64,000 nucleotides of DNA from Promethearchaeota archaeon (GTDB taxonomy: Archaea > Asgardarchaeota > Heimdallarchaeia > Hodarchaeales > Hodarchaeaceae): the NCBI GenBank assembly GCA_048938105.1, contig JBHLMN010000008.1:160001-224000 (forward strand), given 5' to 3'. The notes beneath the pieces were generated by a model. That model was not told the origin of the DNA, did not search any database, and saw only the letters and a list, made by a program, of their open reading frames with translations. How positions within the stretch are numbered: the first letter of the stretch is position 1; each line of letters opens with the position of its first letter. The translations under genes and the position numbers were made by a program. Of the stretch, positions 10,206 to 32,516 are shown one piece after another.

Positions 10206-12350
10206 TTACAGAGTATTATTTGCAAATTCAACATCAATATAAGCATCAATTAATTGATTAGCTATAGCAGTTGATTGTTGATCAGTGGAATTAAAAAAAG
10301 CACAATCATAAAAATCACTATCGGATTCTCCATCAATCCCCCCGCCTCCATTCCACTCTGTTGGGTCAAGATCTATCTCTCGGGTGGAATCAAATTCTTC
10401 CAATCCAATCAGTAAATAGAATCTCATTATTGGACTATATATCTTATTTCTAGGAACGCGGAATTCCAACCAATTATCTGTAGTTGATAATTGATAATCG
10501 TTTTCATTAGCATCAAATATGAGTTGCCAGTTAAATATATCTTCCGTATTAAAGCATTCAATGTTACGACCGATCTTAAGTAACCGTTCACAGGATGAAT
10601 TCAAGGTTGTCTCTGCTTCCGTAATTTCCAAGAGACCATTGTCATCATTATGTACTTGGTCAGTATCAATTCCTAGATAAATCATCGCTAAATCTTGTCC
10701 GATTGGACTTTGCCACCCAACTTGTGTAAAATTAACTACTTGAAGCAAAAAGTAAAAATAGTTACTATTTATAATTATACGTAACTCTAACAAGTCACAA
10801 TAATTCTTTGTAGCAAAAATTCTATTTGGACTGGGATATGAGTAATCTCCATCTCCTATATCATCATTCAAAGCATCTTTCCAAATAATTTCACCCTCAA
10901 TAAATACTTGTGAATTTACTGAAAGATTTTCAGGGAGTTTTTGCCAATCAGCAATCGAAAAATCATTGAGATCTCGGATAGAACCAGTAATATAGCTTTC
11001 GTTTTGATTTTCTAGAAATTGAAAACTACCTAAATAAAGGATAGGTATTATAATCATTGGGATCAGACAAATCACGATTGAAAATGGTAGATTTTGCCAA
11101 GGAATTTTCGCAAGATCTTTAAAATATCGTTTAAAAGAATCTGTTAGATGAGTTAATCCTTTTAAGGATTCTATTTCCCCATATATTGCATATTTGAATA
11201 AATTTTCGATGAATATTCCACAACATATTGTTATTGGTATTTCAAAAAGAGTAAGATATTGAGGCCATCTTGTAGTCCAAAAGATCAAAAAAATAACGTT
11301 TGCACTATAAAAAAGTATGATTGTCCAGTATTTTCTTGATGAACTACTTTCTTGGGAGTTAAAAGCTAATAAAAATAGCAAAAAAATCCCAAAGATGGAT
11401 CCTACAAAGATTATTCCATCAAGATATATTATTGGAAAATTCTGATGCCATATCGTTGGATTTGAGTCCCCTAATAACCATTCAAATTGACGAAGGAGAT
11501 TTGGATCCTTTACACCCTCTGATTGAGAGTAATCATAATGATAGCTAAATGAACTAACGAAGGCCAATGGATTATTTAGAATCCTTGGATTAAAAATGCA
11601 AAAAGCAATCAGAAATATTAGTAGCCAAATAATCGGTTTATGAAATATTTTTGTACAAATAAATACTAAACTTTTGAATTTGGACATCTTAAGAGTAATT
11701 AGATTTTTAATCTTGCTTTCCTCATTCAACAGACAGATTCCTAAGAAAATAATTCCAACAGTGATCATTGCATGATATTTTGAAGCAAATGCTGCCGCAA
11801 CTAAGATTGCACTTGATTTCCACCAGAAATTATTAGTATCTTTTATTTTAATAAAAGCAATTATCGCTAAAATACTAAAGAAGCAAAGACTCGCTTCTAA
11901 ATAGGCTTGTGATGTATACTTAATTGAAAACGAAGAAACTGACCAAAGAAGTGCAGAAGTGAAACCAAATTCTTTCCATAAAATTATTGCAACCCCTGTT
12001 GCTAGTAAAATAGATATTAACCTACATGCAATAAAATTATCCATCTTGAAAAGGGATCCTTCCCCTACAAAGATAATACCTATTGCAAATAGAATTTTCG
12101 CTAATAATGGGTGTTCTGGATTGTCTTCGGAAGTAATGATCTCCCCCCAGTTCCAGTTTAGAAGAGATTTTGCATACATCTCTGCTATTGGAACATATAC
12201 AAACTCATCAAAATCCCCCTCCCCAGTCTCATACATCGTAGTTGCAGCTTGGAGACGTAATCCAATTGAACAAATGATTATAATACTAAGAGATAGAATC
12301 TGTATTATTAACTTGGGTGAGAATTCTTTAAAATTATTGTATGGTTTCAT
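10206..12350 (-). CDS. GT-C fold (GT39/PMT-like) membrane glycosyltransferase fused to a C-terminal glucodextranase DOMON-like carbohydrate-binding domain
   Basis: 'DFDEFVY' acidic loop after TM1, 'EHPLLAK', about 10 TM helices and 'ASKY'; C-terminal 'DDIGDGDYSYP...DLLELRI...IDT...EWNGGGG' resembles Glucodextran_C/DOMON. Confidence 0.7.
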   Translation of the reverse strand: MKPYNNFKEFSPKLIIQILSLSIIIICSIGLRLQAATTMYETGEGDFDEFVYVPIAEMYAKSLLNWNWGEIITSEDNPEHPLLAKILFAIGIIFVGEGSLFKMDNFIACRLISILLATGVAIILWKEFGFTSALLWSVSSFSIKYTSQAYLEASLCFFSILAIIAFIKIKDTNNFWWKSSAILVAAAFASKYHAMITVGIIFLGICLLNEESKIKNLITLKMSKFKSLVFICTKIFHKPIIWLLIFLIAFCIFNPRILNNPLAFVSSFSYHYDYSQSEGVKDPNLLRQFEWLLGDSNPTIWHQNFPIIYLDGIIFVGSIFGIFLLFLLAFNSQESSSSRKYWTIILFYSANVIFLIFWTTRWPQYLTLFEIPITICCGIFIENLFKYAIYGEIESLKGLTHLTDSFKRYFKDLAKIPWQNLPFSIVICLIPMIIIPILYLGSFQFLENQNESYITGSIRDLNDFSIADWQKLPENLSVNSQVFIEGEIIWKDALNDDIGDGDYSYPSPNRIFATKNYCDLLELRIIINSNYFYFLLQVVNFTQVGWQSPIGQDLAMIYLGIDTDQVHNDDNGLLEITEAETTLNSSCERLLKIGRNIECFNTEDIFNWQLIFDANENDYQLSTTDNWLEFRVPRNKIYSPIMRFYLLIGLEEFDSTREIDLDPTEWNGGGGIDGESDSDFYDCAFFNSTDQQSTAIANQLIDAYIDVEFANNTL

Positions 12351-12548
12351 TTTGAATTATTTTCCAAAAAATGTATTTTATTTATTTATGTCTTTTTAAG
12401 TTTCTAATTCTATTTTCATTCTTCACTTTCAAATAAACTCTAGGGTTTAAGGCTTTAACATAACAGTTTCCTCTGTAAAAAAGCCAGTTTGATATTTTAT
12501 TTAAACCAATAATAATCTACTTCAATCAAATCAAAAGGTGAGAAAAAA

Positions 12549-12686
12549 ATGATTGGAATAAAGAAAAACAAAAAAATAGAAAAAGTAAATGCAAAGGAAA
12601 AATCAAAATTCTTTCATAAGAATAAGCAAAACATTACCCATCCATTATATGGCAAAATGTCTACTGGTCTTTTCTCCTACCCTTAA
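12549..12686 (+). CDS. Putative small Lys-rich protein (45 aa), below the ORF-track cut-off
   Basis: ATG at 12549 to TAA at 12686 gives MIGIKKNKKIEKVNAKEKSKFFHKNKQNITHPLYGKMSTGLFSYP. AGGTGA lies just upstream, an AT-rich TTTATTTAAA lies ~45-50 nt upstream, and a T-tract follows. Confidence 0.45.
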   Translation: MIGIKKNKKIEKVNAKEKSKFFHKNKQNITHPLYGKMSTGLFSYP

Positions 12687-12690
12687 CATA

Positions 12691-12707
12691 TTTTCTTTTT
12701 TTTATTT
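12691..12707 (+). terminator. Archaeal-type oligo-T terminator candidate
   Basis: TTTTCTTTTTTTTATTT directly after the stop codon of the small ORF. Confidence 0.35.
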
Positions 12708-12769
12708 ATATCTCAAGGCTCAGATTATACTTTTTGGGAAGAATCAATAGCATTATTTGGGAGTAACTA

Positions 12770-15700
12770 TCATTTTCTGTTCTGTTTTCTCCAATGGTAA
12801 ATAATAGTCAGGGAGAATAATAATACAACGCTTGGCCATACTTCCCAAGTGGATTTTGCCGTAGTTGTTGTAGTAAAGGTTGAGCTTAATGTTGTAGTCG
12901 TTAGAATATCTTTCACTCTTATTTTAATAACAGAAGTTTGAGCTTTATTACCGAATTCATCCGTTGCACTCACAAAAATTGTAACCTTTGGAATATTAAA
13001 TGGTCCTATAATGGCAGCATAGTAATTTAAATTAATTTTAGTCATAAATTTCTGTGTAAAAGTTGTTCCATCATCTAAACTGACATGCAATATAACTGAA
13101 GTGACAGCTGAGTGATCGCTGATATTTACAGTTATAGTTATTAGTTGGTCTCGGAATATTTCTGATGGAGCATTAATTGCTAAGTTAGGAGGTGTTGAAT
13201 CACTAATTATTGTATTAATCGTTTTTATTATTAAAACATCGTCATTAAATGAAAATAAAAATCTTATAGTTGTTTTTCCTCCAGCTATTCCTTTGAAAAG
13301 GACATTTATTGAATTATTACCAGGATTAAGTAAAATATAACTGTACCAAGGGAAAATTTTACTTCCAGTAATATTTAGAAGACCATAGATACTAAAAAGT
13401 TCATGATTTTCAAGTTTAATTGGCAGGTTAATTTCCTCTTCAACGTTAATCCTAGACAAATCAATATAATGGATTGTTGGTACTATACTAGGAGGAGCAG
13501 TAGTAAAAGGTTTCATAAATTGAGTTGGTTCTTTTAATTCAGCTGCTACTAAGATAAATGTTAAATTTTTAGTGGAGATAAAGCCTGTTACATCTACTGA
13601 GAAAGTAACCAGGACTGAAGAATGAGAATTAATATTGCCTACTGTAACGTAGGTCGTTTCAGAAACAAGTCCAGGAAGGAGAACAATACTAAGATTCACA
13701 GATGTTGCAGGAACATTTGCAACATTAGTCAAATATATTCTTATTGTAGTGGATGTACCTGGTTGTAAGTTAGATTGATACAGAAGTGAACCTGTTAAGA
13801 ATCGTGGGATTTCAATAGTAAGTTTCAGTTTTCGTTCATGATGTAATTTACCGTTAATTAAGATTTGGATTGTACAATAATATTCCATACTAGTAGCATT
13901 CTCTTTTCCTCTTATGACCCAGGTGACCTGTTTTGCTGTTAATGGAGCCATATCTCCTAATTCTTGGAGAGGTGAGCCTTGATAGAGTTCTAAATCCTCA
14001 GGTAATATCAATTCGACTACTACTGAATCTGCTGTAATTCCTCCCCGAGATTCAACAGCAAATGTTACCTCTTTGGTTTCCAAATTTGAGAACGAACCAA
14101 AATCAATAGTTCGATCATTAACAAGATCAATATTAACCAAATTCAACAATGATTTATCTTGTGAGTTTCCTTCCACAAATTGCTGCCAAGAGTAACGTGG
14201 TTCATTAATTGTCACCATAGGATAATTGAATGATGTTGTTATCGCATCAATGTACTGAATCATCCGTCTACAGAATTGCCAGTCGTCACCAATTTGCTGA
14301 TCAGATCCTAACCACCAGAAAGCATCACTCCCTTCAGCAATTGTAATATATCGCCATAATGTTTCGTTCTCAGTATCCGTTAATTCTTCCTGATGATTAA
14401 CTAGGAAGTCTCGTCCTTCCATTATATAATTCCAAAGTAGATTTTCGTCTGGTTCACCGTACCAAGTTGAAGTAGTCCCATCGACCCAAGATCCACCACC
14501 ATAGGGAGGTGGATAATTTTTTGTATAGCTAAGCTCAGATGAAGTTAGTATTTTTGTTGGAGGAATACTTTGTATAGCTTCCTCTAATGTCGCAGTTTGT
14601 ATCCACCCGAGTATTTGTGATTCCTCTAAAGCAGTATATACATATTCCAATAAATATCGTGCTGATGGGGCTCCCCAGATCATCCAATTTTCGCCATCAG
14701 CAGCTATTGTTAATACTCTATCTGAATCGCTTTCTACAACTTGTTCTTTATAGATTGAGATGAATTGTCCCATTAAATCTCGAGCAGCATCTTCTGCTGA
14801 TGGATAATTATTATAAGTAAAACCTATATAATTAGAAATAGTTGTATGTCGGAAAAAAACAACCATTTTCTCCCCTGTGATAGAATCAACAACCCAATAA
14901 GGTTCATAAGGTCGATTCCCACCACCTAGGTTCACATCTGACCAGATAGTGTGGTTTATTCCATTTTTAATCCAATATGGAATGATTGGAGTATTGAAAC
15001 TCATTTCTGGTTGCCATGCTCCGTGTGGATTATAATCAAAAAGATTTGAAGTTACATCTTTCCCGAGAGACATTTGACGATTAATATCATCCCACCATCC
15101 CCAGTTGGCTAGAAGTGCAAAAATTGGATGATTATAACCAGAAGTCAGTATTTCTAGTTTTCCATTTCTGCTTTGATTATGCAGAATGTCGTAATGGAGC
15201 TCAATTGTTTTATTAATGTTTTCGACCCAATCATATGTCCAGGTTCCACTATTATTCCATCCGTTTCTGGAAGCTAACCACTGTACTAGGAGGGAGGGTT
15301 GTAAATTGATGGTCACTGAAATATTGGGATGACGATAGAGATCTTCCACATGCCATAAGTAAGGTCCTTCTGTGTGGGCTTGAGCCCATGGCGCAAGAAA
15401 GTTGGGGGGATCTGTAAATGGTTCTGTATAGAATGGTTGATGTTGGTGCCAGACAAAAGATACGTACAATTTCTTCGTTGTCAAAGTTGTATCAACAATA
15501 TTGAGGTTAATTGTTTTCTCAAAAACGATATTACTTCCCTCTAACACCTCTACATCTAAATTATATGAACCCATGTCCTTACTATGATTGAATATATGAA
15601 CCAACGTTAAATTGCTACTGCCTGGGAATGGAAGATTCGTCCATTGGTAAATAAGTATCCTATCCAGATGTAGGTTCACTGTTACTTCTTTTTGATTCTT

Positions 15701-16798
15701 AGCTACATTCTCAAGAAAAATAGTTGCATTTATGTCCTGATCAGTGGTGTAAACAAACCTATCCAGACTTAGAGAACCAATAATTCCAAGCTTTTCTAAG
15801 AAGCCAGTGATCCCTGCTTCCTCCATCTCTGAAGTTAAAGGCCCTCCATATAGACTTAAACTATAAGTCACTGATTCCCCTGGAGAAAGAATCTTTTCAG
15901 AATAACACACTCGTGTTTCAATCCCCCATGAAGATGACTCCAGTCGAAAATATTTTGTTGTATTGTGATATATCATTCCACCAAATGCTCCTTCCGACAG
16001 ATCATAAATCCCTGACCATTCCAAGTCGTTCCATTGAAAGAAATTCCATGAAAGAGTCTGACCAATAGTTGATTGTCCTCCATGACTATAAGCTTGGTAG
16101 TCACTACTGTGGTCTGGCCCAATTTTACTGCCCCATCCTAAGGTATAACCCATTGGATTTCCCGTATCTTGGCCCTCTAAACCAATTGAGGATGCTGTTG
16201 GATTAGTAAAGTTGATAGTTAAATTACCCCAATGTTTATTTTCAGCTATCTGGAATGTTATGGTAACATTAAGGCCAGCTAAATCCGAAGCAGTTCCCTC
16301 ATATGTACTATTAAAAACATAGAATCCCTGAATTGTTGCTATCCCCCCCACTTCCTGTGTCACCAGATCAAATGGTGCGTCCCATAATTCTCCTGTCCAA
16401 GGTTGGTTTGTAACCCAACTCCATAATGGATACCGATTTGTGATTAAATCTCCACCTGCACTTGACACTCCAGAGTTTGCTGCTAGTTCCGTATTCGAGG
16501 TATTATCATACCATTTTACTAACCGAAACCCATAACGAGTTATCCCAATTGTGACTACTCCAGTATTAATGATATATTCATTCCCTGGAATGTCAGGATT
16601 CAGGTCAATTTCTCTTATCATACTTTGTTGTATCTTTTTATTAAATCCAGAATTAACCTCTTTTTCCGAAAAAGAATGAAAAAGCTTTGTAGAAGACGTA
16701 ATTTCATTAGAAGACGACATAAACGTCATTTCTATTACAATCATGGGAGTTATTAATATTAAAACAACCAATATTCTGCTAAAGTCATTCTTTTTCAT
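12770..16798 (-). CDS. Secreted, C-terminally anchored GH57 glycoside hydrolase (amylopullulanase-like)
   Basis: Signal-like N-terminus; GH57 conserved regions HQHQP, WQPEM (nucleophile Glu), AADGENW (acid/base Asp) and AEGSDAFWW; Ig/CARDB-like C-terminal region; Thr-rich linker, TM helix and RKQNRK tail. Confidence 0.85.
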   Translation of the reverse strand: MKKNDFSRILVVLILITPMIVIEMTFMSSSNEITSSTKLFHSFSEKEVNSGFNKKIQQSMIREIDLNPDIPGNEYIINTGVVTIGITRYGFRLVKWYDNTSNTELAANSGVSSAGGDLITNRYPLWSWVTNQPWTGELWDAPFDLVTQEVGGIATIQGFYVFNSTYEGTASDLAGLNVTITFQIAENKHWGNLTINFTNPTASSIGLEGQDTGNPMGYTLGWGSKIGPDHSSDYQAYSHGGQSTIGQTLSWNFFQWNDLEWSGIYDLSEGAFGGMIYHNTTKYFRLESSSWGIETRVCYSEKILSPGESVTYSLSLYGGPLTSEMEEAGITGFLEKLGIIGSLSLDRFVYTTDQDINATIFLENVAKNQKEVTVNLHLDRILIYQWTNLPFPGSSNLTLVHIFNHSKDMGSYNLDVEVLEGSNIVFEKTINLNIVDTTLTTKKLYVSFVWHQHQPFYTEPFTDPPNFLAPWAQAHTEGPYLWHVEDLYRHPNISVTINLQPSLLVQWLASRNGWNNSGTWTYDWVENINKTIELHYDILHNQSRNGKLEILTSGYNHPIFALLANWGWWDDINRQMSLGKDVTSNLFDYNPHGAWQPEMSFNTPIIPYWIKNGINHTIWSDVNLGGGNRPYEPYWVVDSITGEKMVVFFRHTTISNYIGFTYNNYPSAEDAARDLMGQFISIYKEQVVESDSDRVLTIAADGENWMIWGAPSARYLLEYVYTALEESQILGWIQTATLEEAIQSIPPTKILTSSELSYTKNYPPPYGGGSWVDGTTSTWYGEPDENLLWNYIMEGRDFLVNHQEELTDTENETLWRYITIAEGSDAFWWLGSDQQIGDDWQFCRRMIQYIDAITTSFNYPMVTINEPRYSWQQFVEGNSQDKSLLNLVNIDLVNDRTIDFGSFSNLETKEVTFAVESRGGITADSVVVELILPEDLELYQGSPLQELGDMAPLTAKQVTWVIRGKENATSMEYYCTIQILINGKLHHERKLKLTIEIPRFLTGSLLYQSNLQPGTSTTIRIYLTNVANVPATSVNLSIVLLPGLVSETTYVTVGNINSHSSVLVTFSVDVTGFISTKNLTFILVAAELKEPTQFMKPFTTAPPSIVPTIHYIDLSRINVEEEINLPIKLENHELFSIYGLLNITGSKIFPWYSYILLNPGNNSINVLFKGIAGGKTTIRFLFSFNDDVLIIKTINTIISDSTPPNLAINAPSEIFRDQLITITVNISDHSAVTSVILHVSLDDGTTFTQKFMTKINLNYYAAIIGPFNIPKVTIFVSATDEFGNKAQTSVIKIRVKDILTTTTLSSTFTTTTTAKSTWEVWPSVVLLFSLTIIYHWRKQNRK

Positions 16799-16967
16799 AT
16801 TTATCCCTAAAGTCCTTTATTCTTGTTATTACGATTTTTAAAGGCTAGTGTTAAGCTTATGAATAAAAAAACAATGTTCAAAAATAGAAAACCTAGAGCT
16901 TCACTTATCGACGACTTTGAAGTTGAAAGAAAGGTGACCATCTACCAATATTGTCCTACTCTTGGAT

Positions 16968-19900
16968 TCATATAAACTTAGAGCGTTTACGGATGATTTT
17001 AACTAGAAGTAACAATAGAAATAATGATAATGTCACTTCGAGAGCTAGAAAACCTGGAGCCCTACCTTCTGATGATGTAGTGGTCATACTAGAGGTAGTA
17101 GTTGTTGATGTTTCTATTTCAATCTTAAATTCAATCTGTAATTCCTTTGTTTGGACATTCCCAAGTGAATCTGTGGCTTCAATTTTAAGGTAAAGTGTTT
17201 CAGCATCTTGAAATGGCCCTATAATAGCTGACCAGTCATTCTCTCCTGTTTTTATCATACTTTTACTTGTCCAATCCTTAGTAAGATCAGTCTTATATTT
17301 TAACACAACAATTTGGATTCCTGATGGATCAATCACAGTTACTGTGAATGTTATCCGATCAGTTGCTTCTGGTTCTTCTGGTGACCATCGTGCATCTTTA
17401 ATACTAGGGGGAACTTCATCATTAATGAAAATATCACTCGTGAATTCCTTTATAACGCTATCATGGAAATAACAGATGATTTTAACAATTTTTTCTCCTC
17501 CAATCAATCCTTGAACCTCAAAGTTTATAGTTGATGTCTCTAAGGCTTGAAATTGAACAGTTTTGTTAACTGGTACAATTGCTGAACCGTTAATTAATAT
17601 AAGAATGGTTACAGGATAAGAAAGTGTATTTGAAAGGTTAATTCGGATAATTTTTGGTTCAGTGATATCTAAAGTTCCAACTAATTTGTTGAAAATCAAG
17701 ATATCTGAACTTGGTATGGCTGTTCTAATTTGGTGAATACTGATTACTACATCTTCTGCATTTTCAATTTCTATTGTGACCTTAAGTTCTCCAAACGTGT
17801 AAGCATTTACTTCAATAACCCATTCAAATGTAGTCAATTGACCAATATCTATTTCATTAATTGTTTTATTATTATCTCCTTGCAACCCTTGTGGCAAATC
17901 TAAAAAGACAGTAACGTTAACCGCTTTAACAATTCCTATATTTTTCACATTTATACCTAAGATTCCGCTTTTTCCTGGGGAAGCATTTTTAATTCCTAGA
18001 TCATTGATAGATATTACACTTAATTCTGGTTCAGCTGCGTGGATAGTGAATGTATGAACTACATCATCTATGTTATCTGCAGAGATTGTTACTGTAAACT
18101 GATAAGAACCAACATCAGAGCTCACATCAAAGATCCAGTTCGCAATGTACATGTCAATAATTCCATATGCCAAGTCTTCTTGGAAAGTTATTTTATCTAA
18201 AGTTCCAATGTTGATCGTTGAAGAGTTCAACAAAGTTAATCCTGGATCTGTACTTATTACTACTCTCACATTCTGAACTGCTTCTCCTCCTCTACTTTGG
18301 ATAGCGAGAGGAATGGCGAGAGATGACCCTGCTTCGATACCATATTCTCTTGGGAGTTCTAAAGTAGCTGCATAGCCAGGATAAACAGTATCCATTGTTT
18401 GAAAATTAAAAACAGGTTTTTTAAGCCCACTTTCTGTTGTATAATACAGTTGAGGGAGTTTTTCAAATCCAAAGACAGGATCAGATAGGAAAGGCCAGAG
18501 TAAAGTCCAATCTAGTGATACGAAAGCCTTCTCAAAATAACCAGTGATATGATCCGCCCAGTGACGAACTTTAATGAATTGACCTAAATCAGCACCAAAC
18601 CCTCCAGCCCATGTTGCTTCTTCATCACGACCAGCGTAAAAAGCCCAATCAGAACTTTCAGCGTTCATAAGCCACCTCCATAGTTTTAATTCTTCTTCAA
18701 CACTCAAAGATTCTCGCTCTTTATAGAAGAAATCTCTTGCTTCACTCATGTATTTCCACATATCGTTCTCAACGATTTCCCCCCGCCAATTACTGAAGGA
18801 AAATCCTTCCTTATCAGCCCAGGAACCTGATGGAACATTTGAAAGGATTGGTGCTTCAATAGTACCATTTTTGATAAACTTCTCTAATTCTGATAATTTT
18901 AGCGATTTAATCCATCCTCGTGGTTGTTGTTCTTCCAAAGCAGAGTAGAAATTGAATAAAAGCTCATGCGCGTTTGGAGAACCCCCCATAATCATCCAAT
19001 TTTCACCATCTAACGCAATAGGTAAAATTTTATTTTCTTTACCAAAATCTAACCGCTTACCTAAATAGATATCGATCATATCTCCTAATAGTCTCCTAGC
19101 ATTCTCTTTCATGTCTCCCTTATTATATCCGAATGCTATACGATCTCCAATTGGATCTTCTGCCAGTAAAATGATTTCTTTTCCGGTTTCATGTCTAACT
19201 CTATATGGAAGGAGGGGATCATTCATCCCCGAGGCTCTCAGCATAATTTCTTTATTAACAACTGTGTAAGCTATCCCTGTATCATTCAAAATTGGAATAC
19301 AGTCCATAGAAAATGACATTTCAGGAAGCCAAGTACCTCTGACTGTTGTACTTAAGATACTTTCTGTAAAATTCTTCCCCATTTCCATTTGACGGTAAGC
19401 ATCTTCACTAAAACCAGCTTCTATCAATAGTGGCAAAATTGGGTGGGAATAAGGAGTTGTTGTCACTTCTAGCGGGCCATCAGGCTGGGAAAGCTCACTA
19501 TATTTCTGAATAGCAAGTTTTAAATCATCTGTCGCACGATCAGTCCAAGTTCCTGAATCGTTCCATCCATTTTGGGCTATGTACCATTGGTAGAGTAAAA
19601 TTGGTACAATGTTAATAGATACATGTGCTCCTGGATGAGCTTCTAGAGCCTCCCAATGTCTTCTATACGCTCCTTGAGTGTGCAAAAGAGGCCACGGGGA
19701 TGTAAATGTACCACGCCAGTCATAGTTTGCAGGATTGTGTAAATGCCATAAAAATACTGGATATAGTGTTCCTCCCTTGAAATCAACAATATTTAAGGTA
19801 ACACTCCTAGGGATTTCTGCAATTCCCATTGTAGCCTTTAGTTTAAGTTCAGATCTGCCTTCAACCTTCAATACAGAAGAACTAAAAGTGTGCCACTCAT

Positions 19901-23338: not shown

Positions 23339-23461
23339 ATTTTTATCCTACCTAGGATAGGTGAAAAGTGATATTCATTAATACTAATAAGGGTCTCCCT
23401 GAGATTCTCACAAGAAATCAAATAATATCAGAAAATTCTGTATCTTTTGAGGAATAATACC

Positions 23462-24103: not shown

Positions 24104-24175
24104 GTTTGTTTTATCTATGAATTATATCTTCCAATATATCAGTTTAAGTAAAAGCCTGGATCCAGTATCTTCATG

Positions 24176-26224
24176 TTAAGGTGGTAATTTTAACATGTTT
24201 GGCAACATTTCTAACCACCATTGAAAATATATTCTTAATAATTCTGCAAGACTCCATGCTTGACTTATGGTTCCTCTCGAATGGCCTAATGAATCGTTAT
24301 CTGACCCGTCTAAAATCTCACCAAGAGTTCCCAATGCGCCCCGCGTTAAGACTCTTTTAATAAGAACTTCTGTTAAACTTCGTGCTTCCTCAAGTTTCCC
24401 AAAACGGATAGCAGCTTCAATAACTGGTCCTGATAACCATAACCATACATCACCATTGTGATAACTGAAATCATGGTGTTCTTCTCCTTTTCTCGAACCA
24501 TAGTCGTGAAGTGGATGATAATTTGGATCATCTTTGGATAAAGATCTTATCCCATGATCTGCTAAACAATTGGTAAGCACATCTTCAATAACGCACTCAG
24601 CTTGATGTGTAGTGATAAGAGGATTATCTAGTAACGGAACAGTTATAGCAAAAATAATATTAGGACGTTTTTGAAGATTTGGTATGCCATCTTTATCCAA
24701 GTGATCATACAGGGTCTTATTTGAAGAATCCCAGAATTTATCATTGAATACTTTTTTCAACTTGTCCATTATTTTCTTCAATTCTTTAGCAAGAGCAATT
24801 TCCCCCATAAATCTAGCGATTCTTTGTGCAATATCCAATTCAGTAAAAAATAGAGCTTGAATTTCTACAGCACGATTACCCCTGGGAGTAGCAATAACTC
24901 CATTCGTTTGGGCATCCATCCATGTTTCACGATCTCCATGTGTGAGAAATCCTAATTCGTCTGTTCTGGACAGTTCTCCCTTTATAGCAATTTTTATAGC
25001 AGGCCAAATTTCAGATAAAAATTTCTTTTCAAGACTTGTATATTCAAATAAATCCCAGATCGAGCGAATGAACCATCCTGTTGCATCTGCTGTTTCATAA
25101 TTTGGATTCGGAACATTAACTTGTAGGATATTTGGAACTCTCCCATAGGTTGGACTACTTGAATCTGTATCTTGACTATTAATCATTGTACGAATCCATT
25201 CTTCTGCCATCTTGAATTGTCCTGTAACAAGTAACGCCCCTCGAAAGGAAATGAAACTATCCCGACCCCAATATTCAGGAAACCAGTGTAATCCAGCATA
25301 AATTCCTTTCCCCCTTATATTCATTGTAAGGCTATCTAAGCTTAACACTACCCAATTAAGAGCCTGATCCCAATCATTGTTATCAGATGCAATATATGTA
25401 TTATTCAATATGTCAATAAGTGGATCAGATGTCTTCTGCCAAAAATTCTGATAGTTATTCATCCCTTCAACTAAAAGCTTTGTAACCTCATCTATAGTGT
25501 TCTCTATCACAATTATAATAAAGACTGGTTCGTTAGGATCAATTTCAAAGACTAAGTTTCCAGGTTCATAAACTCCTCTTTCCGGGCTGTCGTCTCCTCT
25601 AAACTTATCTTTTCGATATATTCTTTTAATTATTTTCTCACGTTCAATGAATTTTACTAATTTTGAAACTTTTATTCCAATGAATTTTGGTCCAGAGTAA
25701 TCTGTGCTTGATGTGGAAATTAGAAGAAGATTAGTAGATGGATCGAATTTTAAGCTATAATTGCTTCCAATAGCAGCCCAATCATGCCTCATACCAAATT
25801 GAGGCCTAAACCCAACTTCACCAGTGAATTTTGATTGATATTGAATGATCAAAATATTCTCATTTCGGACAAGAAAGAATAGTTCAGTAAAATCACCAAT
25901 TTTTGTCGAGTGTTCGATTTTCACACAATGGGGGTATACTGTTGTAGAAATTACATGTTTAGGATTAGTCTTTTCAAAATACGTATCTAACCAGAAGTTT
26001 GTGAGTGTTGTCCATCGGTCTTTAACTAATCCCTGCCACTTCCTAGTTTCTTCTTTATTCGTTTCACCAGACCAATGACATCGTTGTCTGTTTGTCATCA
26101 CATACTCATATTGCTTGGGAGAAGAAACAGTCAATCCTAGCTTTTTTAGTTGAGGAATTACTTTTAATGGACTCATTGATCCGTTGTGAATATTTCCTAG
26201 ATGTGAATCCTTTTTGTTTGTCAT
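24176..26224 (-). CDS. Amylo-alpha-1,6-glucosidase (glycogen debranching enzyme, GDE_C-type)
   Basis: GIYAGLHWFPEYWGRDSFIS, ADAT.WF, TWMDA, PRGNRAVEIQAL, YHNGDVWLW and QAWSLAE motifs. Confidence 0.88.
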   Translation of the reverse strand: MTNKKDSHLGNIHNGSMSPLKVIPQLKKLGLTVSSPKQYEYVMTNRQRCHWSGETNKEETRKWQGLVKDRWTTLTNFWLDTYFEKTNPKHVISTTVYPHCVKIEHSTKIGDFTELFFLVRNENILIIQYQSKFTGEVGFRPQFGMRHDWAAIGSNYSLKFDPSTNLLLISTSSTDYSGPKFIGIKVSKLVKFIEREKIIKRIYRKDKFRGDDSPERGVYEPGNLVFEIDPNEPVFIIIVIENTIDEVTKLLVEGMNNYQNFWQKTSDPLIDILNNTYIASDNNDWDQALNWVVLSLDSLTMNIRGKGIYAGLHWFPEYWGRDSFISFRGALLVTGQFKMAEEWIRTMINSQDTDSSSPTYGRVPNILQVNVPNPNYETADATGWFIRSIWDLFEYTSLEKKFLSEIWPAIKIAIKGELSRTDELGFLTHGDRETWMDAQTNGVIATPRGNRAVEIQALFFTELDIAQRIARFMGEIALAKELKKIMDKLKKVFNDKFWDSSNKTLYDHLDKDGIPNLQKRPNIIFAITVPLLDNPLITTHQAECVIEDVLTNCLADHGIRSLSKDDPNYHPLHDYGSRKGEEHHDFSYHNGDVWLWLSGPVIEAAIRFGKLEEARSLTEVLIKRVLTRGALGTLGEILDGSDNDSLGHSRGTISQAWSLAELLRIYFQWWLEMLPNMLKLPP

Positions 26225-26351
26225 ATGAACACTATCTTGAAAATTTACAAATAGAAAATAATATTGTTGTTTTAGAAGAAATAACTATCAGTAATAATTA
26301 ATTAAATCGAATTAAGTTAAATTATGAACTAGATATGTTAGGTTATTATTT

Positions 26352-27488
26352 ATGAACAGTATTAATCCTAAAGCAGGAAAAAAAGTACATTCTTTTCAAA
26401 ATTTTCTCTCACAGCTAAACAGAATTGATGATACGGAAAAAGAAGGATACATTCAAGCTTATTTGAAGGATCAACTCCTCCAAGATAACATTCCTATCAT
26501 TGATGAGAGAAGTTGTACATTCATCTATTATGGTTCCAATAATAAGGTAGCAATAGAAGGAGACTTTACAGGTTGGGACTCAGAAGAAATGACTAAGGTA
26601 CAAAACACAGACCTGTGGTTTTTTACGAAAACTTTTCCAAATGATGCGAGACTTGATTATCTCATTACTATTGATGGGATTTCAACACTTGATTTTGGGA
26701 ATAGACGTTTAGTTCCAAGCGGTTTTGGTTATAGAAGTTATATTGAAATGCCACAATATAAACCTAGTAAATCAATTGAATTTAATGACCATATTCCTCA
26801 TGGAACTGTTGAAACAATTGAAAATTTTAGTAGCGCTATTTTTAATAATACAAGAGAAATCAAGATTTATCTTCCTCCAAATTACAATCCGTCTATAGCT
26901 TATCCTTGCCTTTTTATCACAGATGGATTAGAATATCTCCAATTTGCACAGTTTAATAATGTGTTAGATAACCTTCTTTATAACAAAAAAATACGAGAAC
27001 TACTTGCAATTTTCATTCCTCCTATTAATCGTAATATGGAATATTTCATTGAGAAAGAAAAATTCTGTAATTTTTTATTAAAGGAGGTAAAACCGTTTAT
27101 TGATAAGAAATATGCAATAATAAACAATCCTTCGGAATGTGGCTTAATGGGAGCTTCACTTGGAGGTTTAATTTCTGTTTTCACTAGTATAAATAACGAA
27201 GATACTCTAGGGTTAATTGCTTCGCAATCTGGTTATTTTCCAGAAGATTTTATGGGAATTTTCAGTAAAAAAGTTCCTAATGTAAAATTTTACTTTGATG
27301 TGGGTGTTTTTGAAACCTCTATTGGCTCCAATTCTAATTTTTTACAAATGAATCGTGAAATGAAAAAAATAGTTGATGCAAAAGGATTTAATTATTACTA
27401 TCAGGAAGTGAATGAAGGACATTCTTGGGGGAGTTGGCGAGCCCGATTAAAGGATATATTAATGTACCTCTTTCCAATGGAAGAATAA
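26352..27488 (+). CDS. Cytoplasmic alpha/beta-hydrolase esterase (Fes-like) with an N-terminal E-set/CBM48-like domain
   Basis: 'IEGDFTGW...ARLDY' E-set motif; IYLPPNY; nucleophile GASLGG; EGHSWGSW. Confidence 0.8.
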   Translation: MNSINPKAGKKVHSFQNFLSQLNRIDDTEKEGYIQAYLKDQLLQDNIPIIDERSCTFIYYGSNNKVAIEGDFTGWDSEEMTKVQNTDLWFFTKTFPNDARLDYLITIDGISTLDFGNRRLVPSGFGYRSYIEMPQYKPSKSIEFNDHIPHGTVETIENFSSAIFNNTREIKIYLPPNYNPSIAYPCLFITDGLEYLQFAQFNNVLDNLLYNKKIRELLAIFIPPINRNMEYFIEKEKFCNFLLKEVKPFIDKKYAIINNPSECGLMGASLGGLISVFTSINNEDTLGLIASQSGYFPEDFMGIFSKKVPNVKFYFDVGVFETSIGSNSNFLQMNREMKKIVDAKGFNYYYQEVNEGHSWGSWRARLKDILMYLFPMEE

Positions 27489-27645
27489 AATTAATATAGT
27501 ATTATTTATTGGTTAACATCTCCAAAATAGATGGAAATTTTCAATAATGTACTAGTTTTTATGCTAGAAATAACGCTATCTTCAATTCCAGAATTTAAAT
27601 TTGAATATACTTCACTGCAATAAAATAAAACATAATTTCTAAGAA

Positions 27646-29136
27646 ATGGTCGTGATTAATATTAGGATAGTGACAGGAAAAACGATTATACTGGTTTTAT
27701 TATGCACTATAATTTCTTTTTCCAATTTTGTCAATGTTTCTTTAGAAGAACAATTCACATCTTTTCAAGATTTTTTATTACAGGTCAATTTGGCAAATAA
27801 AACGGAGAAAATTCAATTAATTCAATCCTACCTAAATGATCAGCGTTCAAAAAACAATATCCCTGTGATTGAGGAACGAAATTGCACTTTCCTATTTATC
27901 GGGAACCACACTACCGTTTTAGTTGCAGGAGATTTCAATGGATGGACTGGTGAACCTTTGTTAAGAATCAATGATACAGAATTATGGTACTTAACAAAGT
28001 CTTTTCCTCTTGATGCTAGATTAGATTACAAGTTTGTGATTGATGGAACATGGACATTAGATCCAGAGAATGACCAATTAATAATGGGTGGTTATGGTAA
28101 TAATAATGAAATCGTAATGCCAAATTACCACCCTGATCCTGCAATAAACCATTATGATAATATCACACACGGGACAATTAAACTAATTAGAAACTTCTAT
28201 AGTTCAGCTTTTGAGAATTATAGAAACATTCAGGTTTATTTACCACCAAATTATAATCCAAACAGTTCTAAAACATATCCTTCTTTATATGTTACAGATG
28301 GTTTTGAATACGTTGATCTAGCTAAATTTGCTAATGTGTTTGATTATCTACTCTTTCATGATTTAGTACGGGAAGCAATAATCATTTTCATTCCCCCTTA
28401 TCCAGGTGAAAGAAATAATGAGTATTTTTATGATAAAAATACCTTCCTAGATTTTTTGACTCTTGAAGTTTTACCATATATCGATAAAAACTATCGTACT
28501 AGCCAAAATCGTTCTGAAAGAGGAATGATGGGAGCATCTTTGGGTGGTTACATATCTTTTTTCGTTGGTTTTAATCGAGAGAATCTGTTTGGATTAATTG
28601 CCTCTCAATCTGGTTATTTTCCGTATGATCTAATATTTACGTTAGGGAGCCGAGTTCCTGATACAAAATTCTATTTTGATATCGGTACGTTTGAAAAATC
28701 AATTGCTGGAGGAACGGATCTTTATACTCTCAATAAAGAAATGAATAAAACGATGACAGAAAAAAAATATTCTTTTCTCTATCAAGAAATCAATGAGGGC
28801 CACTCTTGGGGCAACTGGCGAGCGCACTTAGATGATATTCTAATATATCTTTTACCCCATGTAGACACTCCTCAAAATACATCCTTGTCATCAAATACCA
28901 ATGATTTAACCTCAGTTACCAGTAGTATCATCTCAACTCCTTCATCTGGAAGTACTGAGAACAATATAACTTCTCATGAAACATCTAGGATAACTTCTTA
29001 TGACACTTTTAATAAAAAAACTAATACTGTTTCCTCTACTCAACCGACAAACCAATCAACAGTATTTCCATTTTTCCTTGGAATTTTAGCAATCTTCGTC
29101 TTCTATTTATTTAGAAGAAAGAGATTTAATATTTGA
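27646..29136 (+). CDS. Secreted, C-terminally anchored paralog of the E-set/alpha-beta-hydrolase esterase
   Basis: Same motifs (VAGDFNGW, ARLDY, GASLGG, EGHSWGNW) plus an N-terminal hydrophobic signal, a Ser/Thr-rich linker, a TM helix and an RRKR tail. Confidence 0.8.
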   Translation: MVVINIRIVTGKTIILVLLCTIISFSNFVNVSLEEQFTSFQDFLLQVNLANKTEKIQLIQSYLNDQRSKNNIPVIEERNCTFLFIGNHTTVLVAGDFNGWTGEPLLRINDTELWYLTKSFPLDARLDYKFVIDGTWTLDPENDQLIMGGYGNNNEIVMPNYHPDPAINHYDNITHGTIKLIRNFYSSAFENYRNIQVYLPPNYNPNSSKTYPSLYVTDGFEYVDLAKFANVFDYLLFHDLVREAIIIFIPPYPGERNNEYFYDKNTFLDFLTLEVLPYIDKNYRTSQNRSERGMMGASLGGYISFFVGFNRENLFGLIASQSGYFPYDLIFTLGSRVPDTKFYFDIGTFEKSIAGGTDLYTLNKEMNKTMTEKKYSFLYQEINEGHSWGNWRAHLDDILIYLLPHVDTPQNTSLSSNTNDLTSVTSSIISTPSSGSTENNITSHETSRITSYDTFNKKTNTVSSTQPTNQSTVFPFFLGILAIFVFYLFRRKRFNI

Positions 29137-30996
29137 AAAGAGGGTTGAACCATATGGTTTTATTTCAAAAATCAACGCTCCATTCTCAACGATAAATTCA
29201 TTGTCAGTTATCAAGTCATATACTAAACCATTAACAAGACCAATTTTCCATACTGGAATTTTAACCTCTTTAGCTCTATTGGAGTTATTAAATACTGCAA
29301 TAATAATTTCATCTTCAATAAATCTAGAATAACAGTATATCTTCTGATCACAATAAAGAGTTTTGATGGATCCTTCTTGTAAAGCTTTTGAGTTTCTCCT
29401 GATCTTAATAAGGCGTTTATAATTCACCAAGATATCTTTATTCCACTTATCATTATCCCAAATCATACATCTTCTGCAATCAGGATCTTGTTCTCCCTCT
29501 AGTCCTACTTCATCTCCATAATATATCGATGGGACACCAATATAAGAAAATAGGAAAGTTATTCCTAATTTAACCTTATTTATATTCATATCTACTAGTG
29601 TAATAAATCTTGGTAAATCATGACAGTTTAATAAGTTATAGTTAAGCAGTTGAATTTGAAACGGTAGAAGTGAACGGAAATCTGCCATTTGTTGATCCAT
29701 ATCAATGGTGGAATAATTGAATTGGATAGATTTTCGATAGTATCTAGGGGGATCATAAATACTAACAATATCCTTCTTTAGAATCCATTTAAGGAATGGT
29801 TGGTAAAAACCACGGTAATTCATAACACCATCTAATCTCGTTCCATTTAACAGGTCAGTTGGATCAAAGAAATGCTCCCCCATGAGATAGCAATCTTTTT
29901 TAACATTTTTTACGTTATATCGAAACTCCTCCCAAATCTTCTTATACTCTTGGAAATCCTGTTGCCTTCCAAGCATGTTTGCTACATCAATTCTCCAGCC
30001 ATCAATGTTAAAAGGTTCACTAAGCCAGTATTGAGCAATAGAATCTTTTTCACGAAAAATATCATCTCTTACTTTTTTTGATTTATAGTTAAGTTTTGGT
30101 AAGGATTTATGGCCTAACCAGCATAAATAATCATCAGGATGGGTATGAAAAATAAAATATTCATAATATGGACTATTTTTATCGCTCTGTGCACTTTTGA
30201 ACCATGGATGATTAACCCCAGTATGATTAAAAACGCCATCAAGGATTATTTTAATACCATTTTGGTGTAATTCATTAACAAGATTAACAAACTCTATATT
30301 AGTGCCTAAATGCTCATCTACATTTTTATAATCGATTGTATCATATTTGTGGTTTGACAAAGACTTGAAAATTGGATTTAAGTAAAGAGCATTAATACCA
30401 ATCATTTTAAAATAAGGTATTTTTTTTCTTATCCCTTCAAGGTCACCCCCATAAAAATCGATGTGAAAACTTCCTGTTTTATAAGACTCAGGCGGTTCCC
30501 CCCACTTCTTTAATATAGGTGATCTTCCTCGATACATATACTCATTATTTTTCACGTTCCTTTTTGGATTTCCATCAAAAAATCTATCTGGGAAAATCTG
30601 ATAAAATATTGATCGTTTAATCCAACTAGGATCTTCAAAATCAGAAATTATTTTGAAGTCTCTTATATCAGATGGCATATGAGAGGTTAAACCATGTGCA
30701 TTGAACCAATATTGGTCTTTTTCTGAAATAAGCATGAATCTATAATTGAAGGATTTTGTAATTATTTTTGTTTCTGCTTCATAATAAGAAAAAAATTCTT
30801 CTTCACTTGACTTTTTCATAAGAATATTGAATTCTTCGCCTTCTGGTGCACAGCAAATAAAAATCTCTTTGATAGGATTCTTTCTATATAACCTGATCTT
30901 AATTTTGATTTTGTCCCCTAAGTCTGGATTGGATGGAGTTAGGAAATCTTTTGATCCATCAGAGTGAATTGTTTCTTTCCATTTAATATGACTCAT
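29107..30996 (-). CDS. GH13 maltodextrin glucosidase/neopullulanase-like enzyme (cytoplasmic)
   Basis: FYQIFPDRF, YGGDLEG, DGVFNH, GWRIDVA, GEHF, NCHD and PSIYYGDE motifs. The start is placed at ATG 30996; the ORF track extends it to 31071. Confidence 0.9.
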   Translation of the reverse strand: MSHIKWKETIHSDGSKDFLTPSNPDLGDKIKIKIRLYRKNPIKEIFICCAPEGEEFNILMKKSSEEEFFSYYEAETKIITKSFNYRFMLISEKDQYWFNAHGLTSHMPSDIRDFKIISDFEDPSWIKRSIFYQIFPDRFFDGNPKRNVKNNEYMYRGRSPILKKWGEPPESYKTGSFHIDFYGGDLEGIRKKIPYFKMIGINALYLNPIFKSLSNHKYDTIDYKNVDEHLGTNIEFVNLVNELHQNGIKIILDGVFNHTGVNHPWFKSAQSDKNSPYYEYFIFHTHPDDYLCWLGHKSLPKLNYKSKKVRDDIFREKDSIAQYWLSEPFNIDGWRIDVANMLGRQQDFQEYKKIWEEFRYNVKNVKKDCYLMGEHFFDPTDLLNGTRLDGVMNYRGFYQPFLKWILKKDIVSIYDPPRYYRKSIQFNYSTIDMDQQMADFRSLLPFQIQLLNYNLLNCHDLPRFITLVDMNINKVKLGITFLFSYIGVPSIYYGDEVGLEGEQDPDCRRCMIWDNDKWNKDILVNYKRLIKIRRNSKALQEGSIKTLYCDQKIYCYSRFIEDEIIIAVFNNSNRAKEVKIPVWKIGLVNGLVYDLITDNEFIVENGALIFEIKPYGSTLFSNIKSLSSK

Positions 30997-31112
30997 TGAT
31001 AATTCTCTCTTCAAAAAAATAATGGGGGGAGAATTTAGCTTATTGGGAATATTTAGATTCCTGATAGGCAATTATTTGATCTTTTTGACTTGCGGATTCG
31101 ATTAAGATCACT

Positions 31113-32516
31113 CTAAGCTTCCTCTATAATCAATTTATCTGGGAATCTTGTGAAGATTAACAGTGCTATTAACATGGGGATGAACGCAAAAACACCCATT
31201 AATAAGATTGGACCTAATGGGTCATAAATATAATAGTAAATTCCTAATTCTTCAGGATAATCAGGATGGAGGATTTTTTCGCTTACAAATGCTCCCAAAA
31301 TAACACCTTCAAGAAAAACAGCAACAGCAATAGCCAACTTTTCAGTGAATTCTTGGAAAGCATAGTACATCGACTCTCTTCGTAATCCCAATCGTCGTTC
31401 TTCATCATCAACTATATCACCAACAATAGTAGGAGGAAAAATCCATAAACCACCCATTCCAAAACCAATAAGGCAAATCATTAGGAATGCTATGAATAAG
31501 TTTCCTGGTGATATAAGAAATAGGAAATTTAGAAGGAGAGGGAATGTAAATATTACCATCGATAAAATGAATGCCCTTTTCTTTCCAAGAAACCGTGGTT
31601 GTGCTAATACTCCCCAAATTGGAAAGCTGATAATGGCAACTATGATCCAAGGCGCTGTTACGATCATTAGCTCATCGAGTTCAAGAAAAAGTACACTGAC
31701 TGCAAAGAAGGGCATTACTGCATTTAATATTCGGAATGAAAATTGCATTCCAATCTGATTTACTAGATAAATCTGATAAGAATCGTTTTGTAGGCTAATG
31801 CGTAATGATTCCATGAGTGGCACTCGTGGTTGTTTCTGGATGTCATCAGTAGGCATTTCCTCGATTGGTAGAACAGCAACTATAGTTACGAGGACAATGA
31901 CTCCTAATACGATACTTGTCATTGAGAATCCAATGCGGTCATATAGAATAGGTGCAATCACTACACCGACAATATTCGCGAGAATAGCAAATATGTTTCC
32001 CCATACTGCCAATGTTATGCGTTCTTTCGATGTTGGGGCAATTTCAGGTAAAAGAGCATAAATTGGTACAAAAACAAAAGTGAATAATGCATCAAAAATG
32101 GATATAATAACAAAGAGAAAACCAATAAGTAGGATTTCTCCCAATCCATTAGGAAAGAGAGTTAACACGAAAAGTGGAGGATTAAACAAAAGAATGAAAC
32201 TAATAGTCATTGGAACGATTCCAACCAGTACGAATGGTCGGCGCCGTCCCCATTTTTTCCACCTTGTGTTATCAGACAACCAACCAACTATTGGATTTAC
32301 AAATGCATCTACTACTCTCCCAACCATTAATGCTGTTCCTACTAATGCTCCTATGACTAAAGGTTCGAGACTAACACCTGTCATTCCCTCTGTCAGGTAG
32401 AAGTATAATACAAATCCCAAAATAGATGCATTGATAATCGATATACCGAAATTTCCAGTGGAGTAGAGAAAGATCTCCTTACGTGAGAGTTTTCGTTGTT
32501 GAATTATGTTCATCAT
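31113..32516 (-). CDS. MFS transporter, glycoside-pentoside-hexuronide (GPH/MelB-like) family
   Basis: GRVVDAFVNPIVGWLSD, WGRRRPF, LGKKRA and DIVDDEE...RRES motifs; 12-TM pattern. The start is placed at the MM codons (32516) to avoid overlap. Confidence 0.85.
   Translation of the reverse strand: MMNIIQQRKLSRKEIFLYSTGNFGISIINASILGFVLYFYLTEGMTGVSLEPLVIGALVGTALMVGRVVDAFVNPIVGWLSDNTRWKKWGRRRPFVLVGIVPMTISFILLFNPPLFVLTLFPNGLGEILLIGFLFVIISIFDALFTFVFVPIYALLPEIAPTSKERITLAVWGNIFAILANIVGVVIAPILYDRIGFSMTSIVLGVIVLVTIVAVLPIEEMPTDDIQKQPRVPLMESLRISLQNDSYQIYLVNQIGMQFSFRILNAVMPFFAVSVLFLELDELMIVTAPWIIVAIISFPIWGVLAQPRFLGKKRAFILSMVIFTFPLLLNFLFLISPGNLFIAFLMICLIGFGMGGLWIFPPTIVGDIVDDEERRLGLRRESMYYAFQEFTEKLAIAVAVFLEGVILGAFVSEKILHPDYPEELGIYYYIYDPLGPILLMGVFAFIPMLIALLIFTRFPDKLIIEEA

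Follow-up and report, generated by a model that had tools for sequence, protein, structure and literature searches.

A candidate alpha-glucan utilisation locus with membrane-tethered enzymes in a Hodarchaeales archaeon

Asgard archaea are the closest prokaryotic relatives of eukaryotes, and what is known of their use of extracellular polysaccharides comes, to our knowledge, almost entirely from counting genes. Here we describe a locus in a 64,000-nucleotide stretch of DNA (hereafter the window; positions 160,001 to 224,000 of contig JBHLMN010000008.1, assembly GCA_048938105.1) from a Hodarchaeales metagenome-assembled genome (MAG) of 5.85 Mb and 99% completeness. The locus combines two giant glycoside hydrolases of family 57 (GH57) with a phosphatase, two esterases, a glycosyltransferase, cytosolic glucosidases and a sugar symporter, and offers a concrete, testable surface polysaccharide system for Asgard archaea. 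An original prediction, made from the sequence, had read it as an Asgard-like alpha-glucan locus with surface-anchored enzymes. That description is supported by domain calls and by anchor features on four proteins, and the closest homologues of the phosphatase and of the GH57 proteins carry the names Hodarchaeales or Kariarchaeaceae, both Asgard (Promethearchaeati) lineages.

Gene content and predicted topology of the locus

Gene content was established from an open reading frame (ORF) listing with Pfam and NCBIfam scans, which recovered every gene that had been named, in place and with the domains given; motifs were read from the translations. The minus strand carries, in order of position, a GT-C-type membrane glycosyltransferase with a C-terminal Glucodextran_C domain (714 aa; 10206 to 12350; a weak PMT_2 match and a Glucodextran_C match), the anchored, amylopullulanase-like GH57A (1342 aa; 12770 to 16798; PF03065, E = 3e-39), its anchored paralogue GH57B (1382 aa; 16968 to 21116; PF03065, E = 3.5e-24) and an anchored phosphatase of the EEP fold (715 aa; 21191 to 23338; PF03372, Exo_endo_phos, E = 8e-15). 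On the same strand lies a GDE_C protein of the GH133 amylo-alpha-1,6-glucosidase type (GDE; 682 aa; 24176 to 26224; PF06202, E = 1.6e-67). Two plus-strand esterases follow, the cytosolic Est1 with a CBM48-like and a PF00756 domain (378 aa; 26352 to 27488; PF00756, E = 2.7e-26) and the anchored, CE1-like Est2 (496 aa; 27646 to 29136; PF00756 and AMPK1_CBM/CBM48). Back on the minus strand, a cytosolic GH13 maltodextrin glucosidase of the MalZ type (29107 to 31071; PF00128, E = 5e-67) and a GPH-family (MFS_2) sugar:cation symporter (31113 to 32600; PF13347, E = 1.9e-56; TIGR00792) complete the set.

Export and anchoring were judged from hydropathy and from the translations. A leader, a Ser/Thr-rich stretch, a hydrophobic segment and a basic tail occur together in exactly four proteins, GH57A, GH57B, EEP and Est2. 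Their Ser plus Thr fraction is 0.29-0.41, the hydrophobic segment spans 15-19 aa with a Kyte-Doolittle value of 2.0-2.8, and the tail holds 4-7 Lys/Arg residues. By the same hydropathy analysis no hydrophobic segment was found in GDE, Est1 or GH13. These features suggest that the four proteins are exported and held at the membrane. At the C-terminus of GH57B (16968 to 17060) the sequence APGFLALEV precedes the hydrophobic stretch and basic tail, and resembles a PGF-CTERM archaeosortase signal; the PGF motif is present in GH57B alone among the four.

One further gene of the locus had gone unlisted in the original prediction. Lying between EEP and GDE on the opposite strand, it encodes a P-loop kinase-like protein (218 aa; 23447 to 24103, plus strand; weak Thymidylate_kin match) that is dTMP-kinase-like and whose Atlas neighbours are bacterial clusters annotated as hypothetical or putative dTMP kinase. 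The gene is probably an unrelated insertion, and it is absent at the corresponding locus of the sister genome introduced below, where 116 bp part GDE and EEP.

The glycosidase core, its partners and its conservation

Comparisons covered between 40 and 399 Asgard genomes, depending on the gene. Four genomes recur: that of the window (G000), the sister 'Candidatus Hodarchaeota archaeon YT2_004' (G004), a third species (G015) and a member of another Heimdallarchaeial family (G076).

Against a curated PF03065 cut-off of 21.2 bits, GH57A and GH57B score 135.5 and 86.1 bits. GH57A is built of a leader, a mutarotase-like supersandwich with an Ig domain, the GH57 catalytic domain, a beta-sandwich stalk, a Thr-rich linker, a transmembrane (TM) segment and a basic tail. 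GH57B has the same architecture at about 30% identity, and its orthologue in G004 is 65% identical. A PDB sequence search returned, as the best solved relatives of the catalytic domains, the amylopullulanase of Staphylothermus marinus (7E1Y, E = 4.5e-33) and then AaApu of Aquifex (8ZYI). The five GH57 conserved sequence regions (CSRs) can be read as HQHQP, GKLEI, WQPEMS, DGENWM and AEGSDAFWW, and in an alignment of six paralogues the columns of the catalytic Glu (WQPEMS, CSR-3) and Asp (DGENWM, CSR-4) are invariant. The same five motifs are listed for AaApu, with Glu as the nucleophile and Asp as the acid/base (PMC12106739). Their nearest solved relatives would place GH57A and GH57B with the amylopullulanases rather than with branching enzymes or glucanotransferases.

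Both paralogues, and three more proteins in G004, are headed by an N-terminal domain of about 390 residues that matches no Pfam family. Among 1.84 billion representatives a profile search found only 38 relatives of this domain. Most are archaeal GH57s of about 950 aa, for example from a Nitrososphaeria MAG and from Palaeococcus ferrophilus, and a few are PMT_2-type GT-Cs that bear the domain at their C-terminus. An AlphaFold model computed with 20 sequences, 15 of them supplied by the profile search, reached a pLDDT of 89.8. Foldseek related it to a galactose-mutarotase-like beta-supersandwich (GalM, the periplasmic domain of YidC, GH38 accessory domains), after which comes an Ig-like domain; as modelled, the supersandwich is a typical accessory fold of glycoside hydrolases. 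Giant GH57s of this kind occur in 2 of 40 relatives, G000 and G004 only. The GH57s of about 1190 aa in G017, G025, G029 and G033 share the catalytic domain alone, and no accessory genes were found near them.

Among the cytosolic enzymes, GH13 scores 586 bits against the cut-off of 568 for the MalZ equivalog NF008051, and GDE is the sole strong GDE_C match in its genome, with orthologues of 52% identity in G004 and 62% in G015. The G015 orthologue (L113, G015:C1, 6027 to 9542, minus strand; 1171 aa, in an ORF that enters masked bases) begins with a hydrophobic leader, contains Ig-like repeats and ends in a Glucodextran_C tail, and may therefore be exported in that species, although the enzyme is cytosolic in the window's genome. 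The symporter has a counterpart in G015 as well, of 74% identity and located after the esterase.

The absence of a visible ABC system, part of the original prediction, needs qualifying. No binding-protein-dependent ABC importer is present, but a membrane machine lies directly upstream (42 to 10199, plus strand), comprising a giant M28/MacB_PCD/FtsX protein, a 242-aa protein, a DUF6785 protein and an OPT-like permease, as called by Pfam. All four of its genes are syntenic in G004, at 49-79% identity, and the machine is a candidate for an alternative uptake route. Elsewhere in the genome, contig C14 (93895 to 120755 and 265980) holds a glycogen synthase (Glyco_transf_5), a GH57 of 702 aa and a further GH13, which suggests a separate endogenous glycogen pathway.

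Gene order across the genomes resolves the locus into two modules with different histories. The first consists of GT-C, the giant GH57s and EEP together with the FtsX/OPT machine; G004 alone shares it, at 49-79% identity. The second is the divergent pair of GDE and esterase, found in G000, G004 and G015; in G015 it is followed by GPH, Bax1-I and acetyl-CoA synthetase, as in the window, and the locus there contains no GH57, EEP or GH13. Only the version of the locus in the window's genome has GH13, Est1 and the P-loop gene. GH13 and GPH, both included in the original prediction, do not belong to the conserved core: they are absent at the G004 locus, and only GPH, not GH13, was found in G015. 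The accessory genes, in contrast, are conserved together with the glycosidases, as the original prediction required. Synteny with G004, at 52-65% identity, takes in GT-C, both GH57s, EEP, GDE and the anchored esterase. In that genome GDE, EEP, GH57B and GH57A run co-directionally with gaps of 116, 117 and 14 bp; in the window EEP, GH57B and GH57A do so with gaps of 74 and 169 bp. GT-C, giant GH57 and EEP also share the same rare phyletic pattern, each confined to G000 and G004 (among 82 genomes of the class, 40 relatives and 399 genomes of the phylum, respectively). At its end, the G004 locus adjoins genes of the heliorhodopsin and Staygreen families (L018, G004:C104, 12765 to 14107, plus strand).

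The glycosyltransferase is a putative member of the PMT_2/GT39-like GT-C group. Its PMT_2 match (E = 4.7e-4, 20.8 bits) falls below the cut-off of 26.1 bits, ten hydrophobic segments are predicted to cross the membrane, and a PDB sequence search with the protein gave no match. Its TM domain is homologous (E = 2e-22) to that of the metagenomic protein P0146, which at 34.8 bits lies above the PMT_2 cut-off and whose C-terminal domain is the supersandwich that heads the giant GH57s. P0146, P0152 and P0159 are metagenomic PMT_2-type GT-Cs of about 690 aa, each with a homologue of the GH57-type supersandwich at residues ~410-640. By these sequence comparisons, the GT-C subfamily and the GH57 enzymes appear to be evolutionarily linked through the supersandwich domain. 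The subfamily was detected in 2 of 82 genomes of the class, G000 and G004.

A DOMON domain had been proposed for the C-terminus of GT-C. No DOMON match as such was obtained; the domain is Glucodextran_C (PF09985, E = 2.2e-9), the only one in the genome, and the G004 orthologue does without it. Glucodextran_C sits on GT-C here, on GDE in G015 and on a GH57 in G076, a distribution in which the domain is, by its sequence matches, shuffled among the proteins of these loci. Long Ser/Thr stalks are a feature of each of the four tethered enzymes, and for this reason protein O-glycosylation would be the simplest role for a PMT-like GT-C. That it O-glycosylates those very stalks is a tentative idea that we consider rather doubtful.

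Esterases and phosphatase

Both esterases score 88-93 bits against PF00756, and the catalytic Ser (GASLGG, a GxSxG motif) and His (EGHSWG) are invariant in 20 homologues. As a whole protein, Est2 is nearest among solved structures to CBM48-CE1 feruloyl/acetyl-xylan esterases, at a distance (E = 1.5e-16). Its AMPK1_CBM match sits at the cut-off, and the CBM48 module searched in isolation is nearest to the glycogen-binding modules of AMPK beta1 (E = 7e-7), with the motifs FNGW and YKF.DG.W aligned. The Trp/Lys/Trp residues of this module, which we take to be the sugar-binding platform of AMPK, are kept in all orthologues and fusions linked to alpha-glucans and are lost in Est1 and in distant Asgard paralogues that have no alpha-glucan neighbours. 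Est1 is 50% identical to Est2 and retains the Ser and His, lacks a leader, and has the Lys and the second Trp of the CBM48 site replaced; it is absent from the G004 and G015 loci.

Genomic context points in the same direction. Est2 orthologues of at least 41% identity on contigs where the neighbourhood can be judged all adjoin alpha-glucan genes (G004, G015 and G076), so that the association spans two Heimdallarchaeial families. In G076 (L114, G076:C62, 9448 to 19977, minus strand) a same-strand run encodes a GH57 with Glucodextran_C, a GH57 4-alpha-glucanotransferase, an APH-like kinase that is possibly maltokinase-like, an 877-aa Glucodextran_C protein, the CBM48-esterase and GAPDH. Metagenomic clusters go further and fuse the esterase to alpha-glucan enzymes, either as Glucodextran_N, GH15, CBM48 and esterase or as a signal, CBM48-esterase, GDE_C and Glucodextran_C. 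A survey of esterase-bearing proteins longer than 869 aa listed 26, none of them with a xylanase fusion, and Pfam scans of the window gave no xylanase family, the neighbours of the esterases being GH57, GDE_C and GH13. Siderophore (enterochelin) esterases were considered and set aside, since the similarity to NCBIfam models and Enterochelin_N is only weak and both context and fusions speak against them.

Because of the CBM48 match, the neighbourhoods, the fusions and the retained Trp/Lys/Trp, Est2 is tied to alpha-glucans rather than to xylan, and this link, which bears out the association made in the original prediction, is the strongest new result of our analysis. That the enzyme acts on a substituent borne by an alpha-glucan has, in our estimate, even odds. 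The fusions and the conserved binding site point to a previously unrecognised family of alpha-glucan-associated esterases in bacteria and archaea. As a lead that reaches beyond the window's genome, this putative family is the most interesting and transferable outcome of the work.

The phosphatase consists of a leader, the catalytic domain, three beta-sandwich repeats of about 100 aa, a Ser/Thr linker, a TM segment and a basic tail. Its catalytic domain matches PDB entry 3TEB (E = 4.5e-24), and the motifs QE, GDFN and SDH are invariant in the alignment. The protein is 50-54% identical to hundreds of Bacteroidota and Spirochaetota proteins of about 410 aa with a lipoprotein leader and a PKD domain, to which JGI attaches the automated label maltose 6'-phosphate phosphatase. 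The earlier designation MapP-like stands as regards the EEP fold, the intact motifs and an identity of 35% to the EEP of a Fusobacteriaceae locus with LacI and a phosphotransferase system (PTS) EIICB component, an arrangement like that of MapP. It does not extend to orthology. In a maximum-likelihood tree, which did not include the MapP of Enterococcus faecalis itself, an exported clade (24 rows) is separated with 99/99 support from five short bacterial forms, among them the PTS-linked EEP; the short forms have neither leader nor PKD domain.

The exported clade unites Hodarchaeales, one Kariarchaeaceae sequence, Brevinematales/Spirochaetes and Bacteroidota. A transfer from Bacteroidota was considered and is not adopted, as the archaeal sequences do not fall within that phylum in the tree, and we leave the direction unclaimed. 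Of 399 Asgard genomes, two gave strong EEP matches, G000 and G004. No PTS gene was detected in the window by Pfam scans, and a scan of metagenome contigs with the EEP protein returned one irrelevant repeat match only. Because the bacterial relatives are without conserved context, the case for a phospho-glucan role is drawn entirely from family resemblance and from the operon-like position in G000 and G004. Action on phospho-glucans or phospho-dextrins is accordingly a possibility that we place somewhat below even odds.

Other parts of the window encode different functions. Downstream lies a methylcitrate-cycle set of PrpD, citrate synthase and a PEP-mutase/ICL-like protein (35426 to 38939, minus strand), and beyond it are an MTTB-like methyltransferase, a homocysteine S-methyltransferase-like protein and a corrinoid (B12-binding) protein (42189 to 45207, minus strand). 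A second FtsX/MacB_PCD permease is accompanied by an ABC ATPase and by a protein of 519 aa without a Pfam match (55440 to 59346, minus strand). Two genes for N6/N4 DNA methylases are located at 48606 to 49421 and 59397 to 60380.

Proposed pathway, alternatives and known systems

Taken together, we give a probability of roughly 55% to the reading that the locus serves, as one composite system, the breakdown of external alpha-1,4/alpha-1,6 glucans (starch or glycogen), including accessory de-decoration. Its narrower part, catabolism of alpha-glucans with depolymerisation at the surface, we regard as very probable. For its wider part, we infer that phosphate and acyl groups would be stripped from substituted alpha-glucans.

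In this composite system the GH57 pair would cut the polymer at the cell surface into linear and branched dextrins. Docked on the glucan by its CBM48 through Trp/Lys/Trp, the esterase would remove O-acyl groups that block hydrolases, and the phosphatase would take phosphate monoesters off the phospho-dextrins left by amylolysis of phosphorylated starch or glycogen, the kind of substrate that MapP handles in the cytoplasm. Neutral oligosaccharides could then enter through the GPH symporter, the adjacent membrane machine, or both. Inside the cell, GDE would remove branch stubs and the MalZ-type GH13 would release glucose, while Est1, having lost the polymer-binding residues, might deal with residual acyl-oligosaccharides. 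The PMT-like GT-C, finally, would O-glycosylate the Ser/Thr-rich stalks of the tethered enzymes.

Several observations weigh against this composite reading. The full set of genes is found in only two or three species of one genus, and their conserved order may for that reason reflect recent common descent; the G004 locus, moreover, lacks GH13 and GPH. The characterised relatives of the esterases are feruloyl/acetyl-xylan esterases and a capsule deacetylase, and we know of no abundant natural starch or glycogen that is O-acylated. The PMT_2 score of GT-C is sub-threshold. Bacterial relatives of EEP showed no conserved neighbours in 49 loci, where the largest shared neighbour family reached 6 of 49 and a GH13 lay within 10 kb in only 4 of 49, and the loci of the nearest Spirochaete/Brevinematales sequences have unrelated neighbours. 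The exported EEP clade therefore need not act on glucans. Lastly, with the sole strong GDE_C of the genome at this locus and a glycogen synthase elsewhere, the cytosolic enzymes could serve the cell's own glycogen.

In one alternative the alpha-glucan system is limited to the glycosidases. The phosphatase would then be a general phosphatase or phosphodiesterase of the cell surface that scavenges phosphate, or its substrates would be nucleic acids or other sugar phosphates; the esterases would have unrelated substrates, and the placement of these enzymes would be an accident of a young, laterally assembled island. The lack of a conserved neighbourhood around the bacterial EEPs and the presence of EEP in just 2 of 399 Asgard genomes are in keeping with such an island, as are distant Asgard esterase paralogues without alpha-glucan genes within about 10 kb and the action of characterised CBM48-CE1 enzymes on xylan or capsule. 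However, EEP is placed as in an operon, flanked by GDE and GH57B in G004 and immediately ahead of GH57B in the window, and its rare phyletic pattern is identical to those of GT-C and giant GH57; for the esterase, the fusions to GH15 and GDE_C, the neighbourhood in two families and the intact CBM48 site all argue against a mere passenger. We consider this alternative unlikely as a whole and most plausible for the phosphatase.

The strict co-occurrence of GT-C with the giant GH57s also admits a constructive role, in which the anchored module would build or remodel a surface alpha-glucan or glycoprotein layer, with GT-C using a lipid-phosphate donor, the GH57s transglycosylating or trimming, and phosphatase and esterase editing the product. 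The supersandwich shared between related GT-Cs and the GH57s fits this view, as do the permanent tethering of all the enzymes involved and the existence of glucanotransferases and branching enzymes within the GH57 family (PMC6037648). Yet the nearest solved GH57 relatives are hydrolytic amylopullulanases, and the locus includes a cytosolic MalZ-type glucosidase, a debranching glucosidase and a sugar symporter, with acetyl-CoA synthetase and central carbon genes at its flank; G015, furthermore, keeps GDE, esterase and GPH without GT-C or GH57. Construction of a surface layer thus appears improbable. No likelier, in our judgement, is the proposal that GDE, GH13 and Est1 mainly turn over the cell's own glycogen and are loosely coupled to the surface enzymes. 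The glycogen synthase and further GH57 and GH13 genes on another contig, and the standing of the window's GDE as the only strong GDE_C of the genome, would favour it; against it, GDE runs in the same direction as EEP and the GH57s in G004 and at short distances from them, its G015 orthologue has a leader, Ig-like repeats and a Glucodextran_C tail that suggest export, and a bacterial relative is an exported fusion of esterase and GDE.

If the composite catabolic reading is correct in full, two undescribed activities would follow: de-esterification of alpha-glucans by a widespread family of Asgard and bacterial CBM48-esterases of the glycogen-binding type, and extracellular dephosphorylation of phospho-glucans or phospho-dextrins by the exported MapP-like EEP clade. 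That both hold is doubtful in our view, but together they would make this the first 'de-decorating' alpha-glucan utilisation system, and acylated or phosphorylated natural alpha-glucans would be a significant substrate in sediments. Taken singly, a real esterase activity would be new for CE1-like esterases and would suggest that ester-substituted alpha-glucans exist in nature, and a phosphatase acting on phospho-dextrins would explain how microbes cope with phosphate esters in the starch of plants and algae. We know of no system for using starch or glycogen that has a dedicated esterase or an extracellular phosphatase among its parts. Literature searches likewise found no such system, and searches of the Asgard and Heimdallarchaeia literature on amylopullulanase and starch found no description of the locus.

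A locus that brings together glycosidases of the cell surface with accessory enzymes, a transporter and enzymes that finish one class of polysaccharide inside the cell recalls the Sus system and other polysaccharide utilisation loci (PULs) of Bacteroidota. Here, in contrast, there is no outer membrane, the enzymes are anchored by C-terminal TM segments and the locus shows no evident regulator; SusC/SusD families were not found among the Pfam-scanned major ORFs in and around it. The esterases share with the CBM48-CE1 enzymes of Bacteroidota xylan PULs (wtsFae1A/B, DmCE1A/B, Bacint_01033/01039) and with KpACE of Klebsiella the two-domain architecture, the Ser-His triad, export and the removal of esters from polysaccharides. 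They differ in their alpha-glucan context, in the AMPK-type Trp/Lys/Trp and in having relatives fused to GH15 or GDE_C, whereas the CBM48s of xylan PULs are reported not to bind starch (PMC8040265). The phosphatase has the EEP fold and the conserved catalytic motifs of MapP from E. faecalis; MapP, however, is a cytoplasmic, single-domain, PTS-linked protein, and the enzyme described here, predicted to be exported and tethered, is 715 aa long, contains three beta-sandwich repeats and comes without a PTS.

Another parallel is found in Thermococcales, where a membrane-anchored GH57 amylopullulanase works with the Mal-II/mdx maltodextrin ABC transporter. Common to both are an exported GH57 held by a Thr-rich linker and a C-terminal TM segment, cytosolic glucosidases that finish the imported oligosaccharides, and the presence of Glucodextran_C. 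Unlike that system, the present locus has two paralogous GH57s with an additional N-terminal mutarotase-like supersandwich, carries Glucodextran_C on GT-C instead of on GH57, has a GPH symporter and an FtsX/OPT machine in place of a binding-protein-dependent ABC importer, and adds a tethered phosphatase, esterases and a GDE_C enzyme. The core of the locus resembles the anchored-amylopullulanase system of Thermococcales and other archaeal starch clusters, and what sets it apart is the GH57 pair with its rare supersandwich, the lack of a binding-protein ABC importer, the tethered EEP, the glycogen-binding type of esterase and the GT-C.

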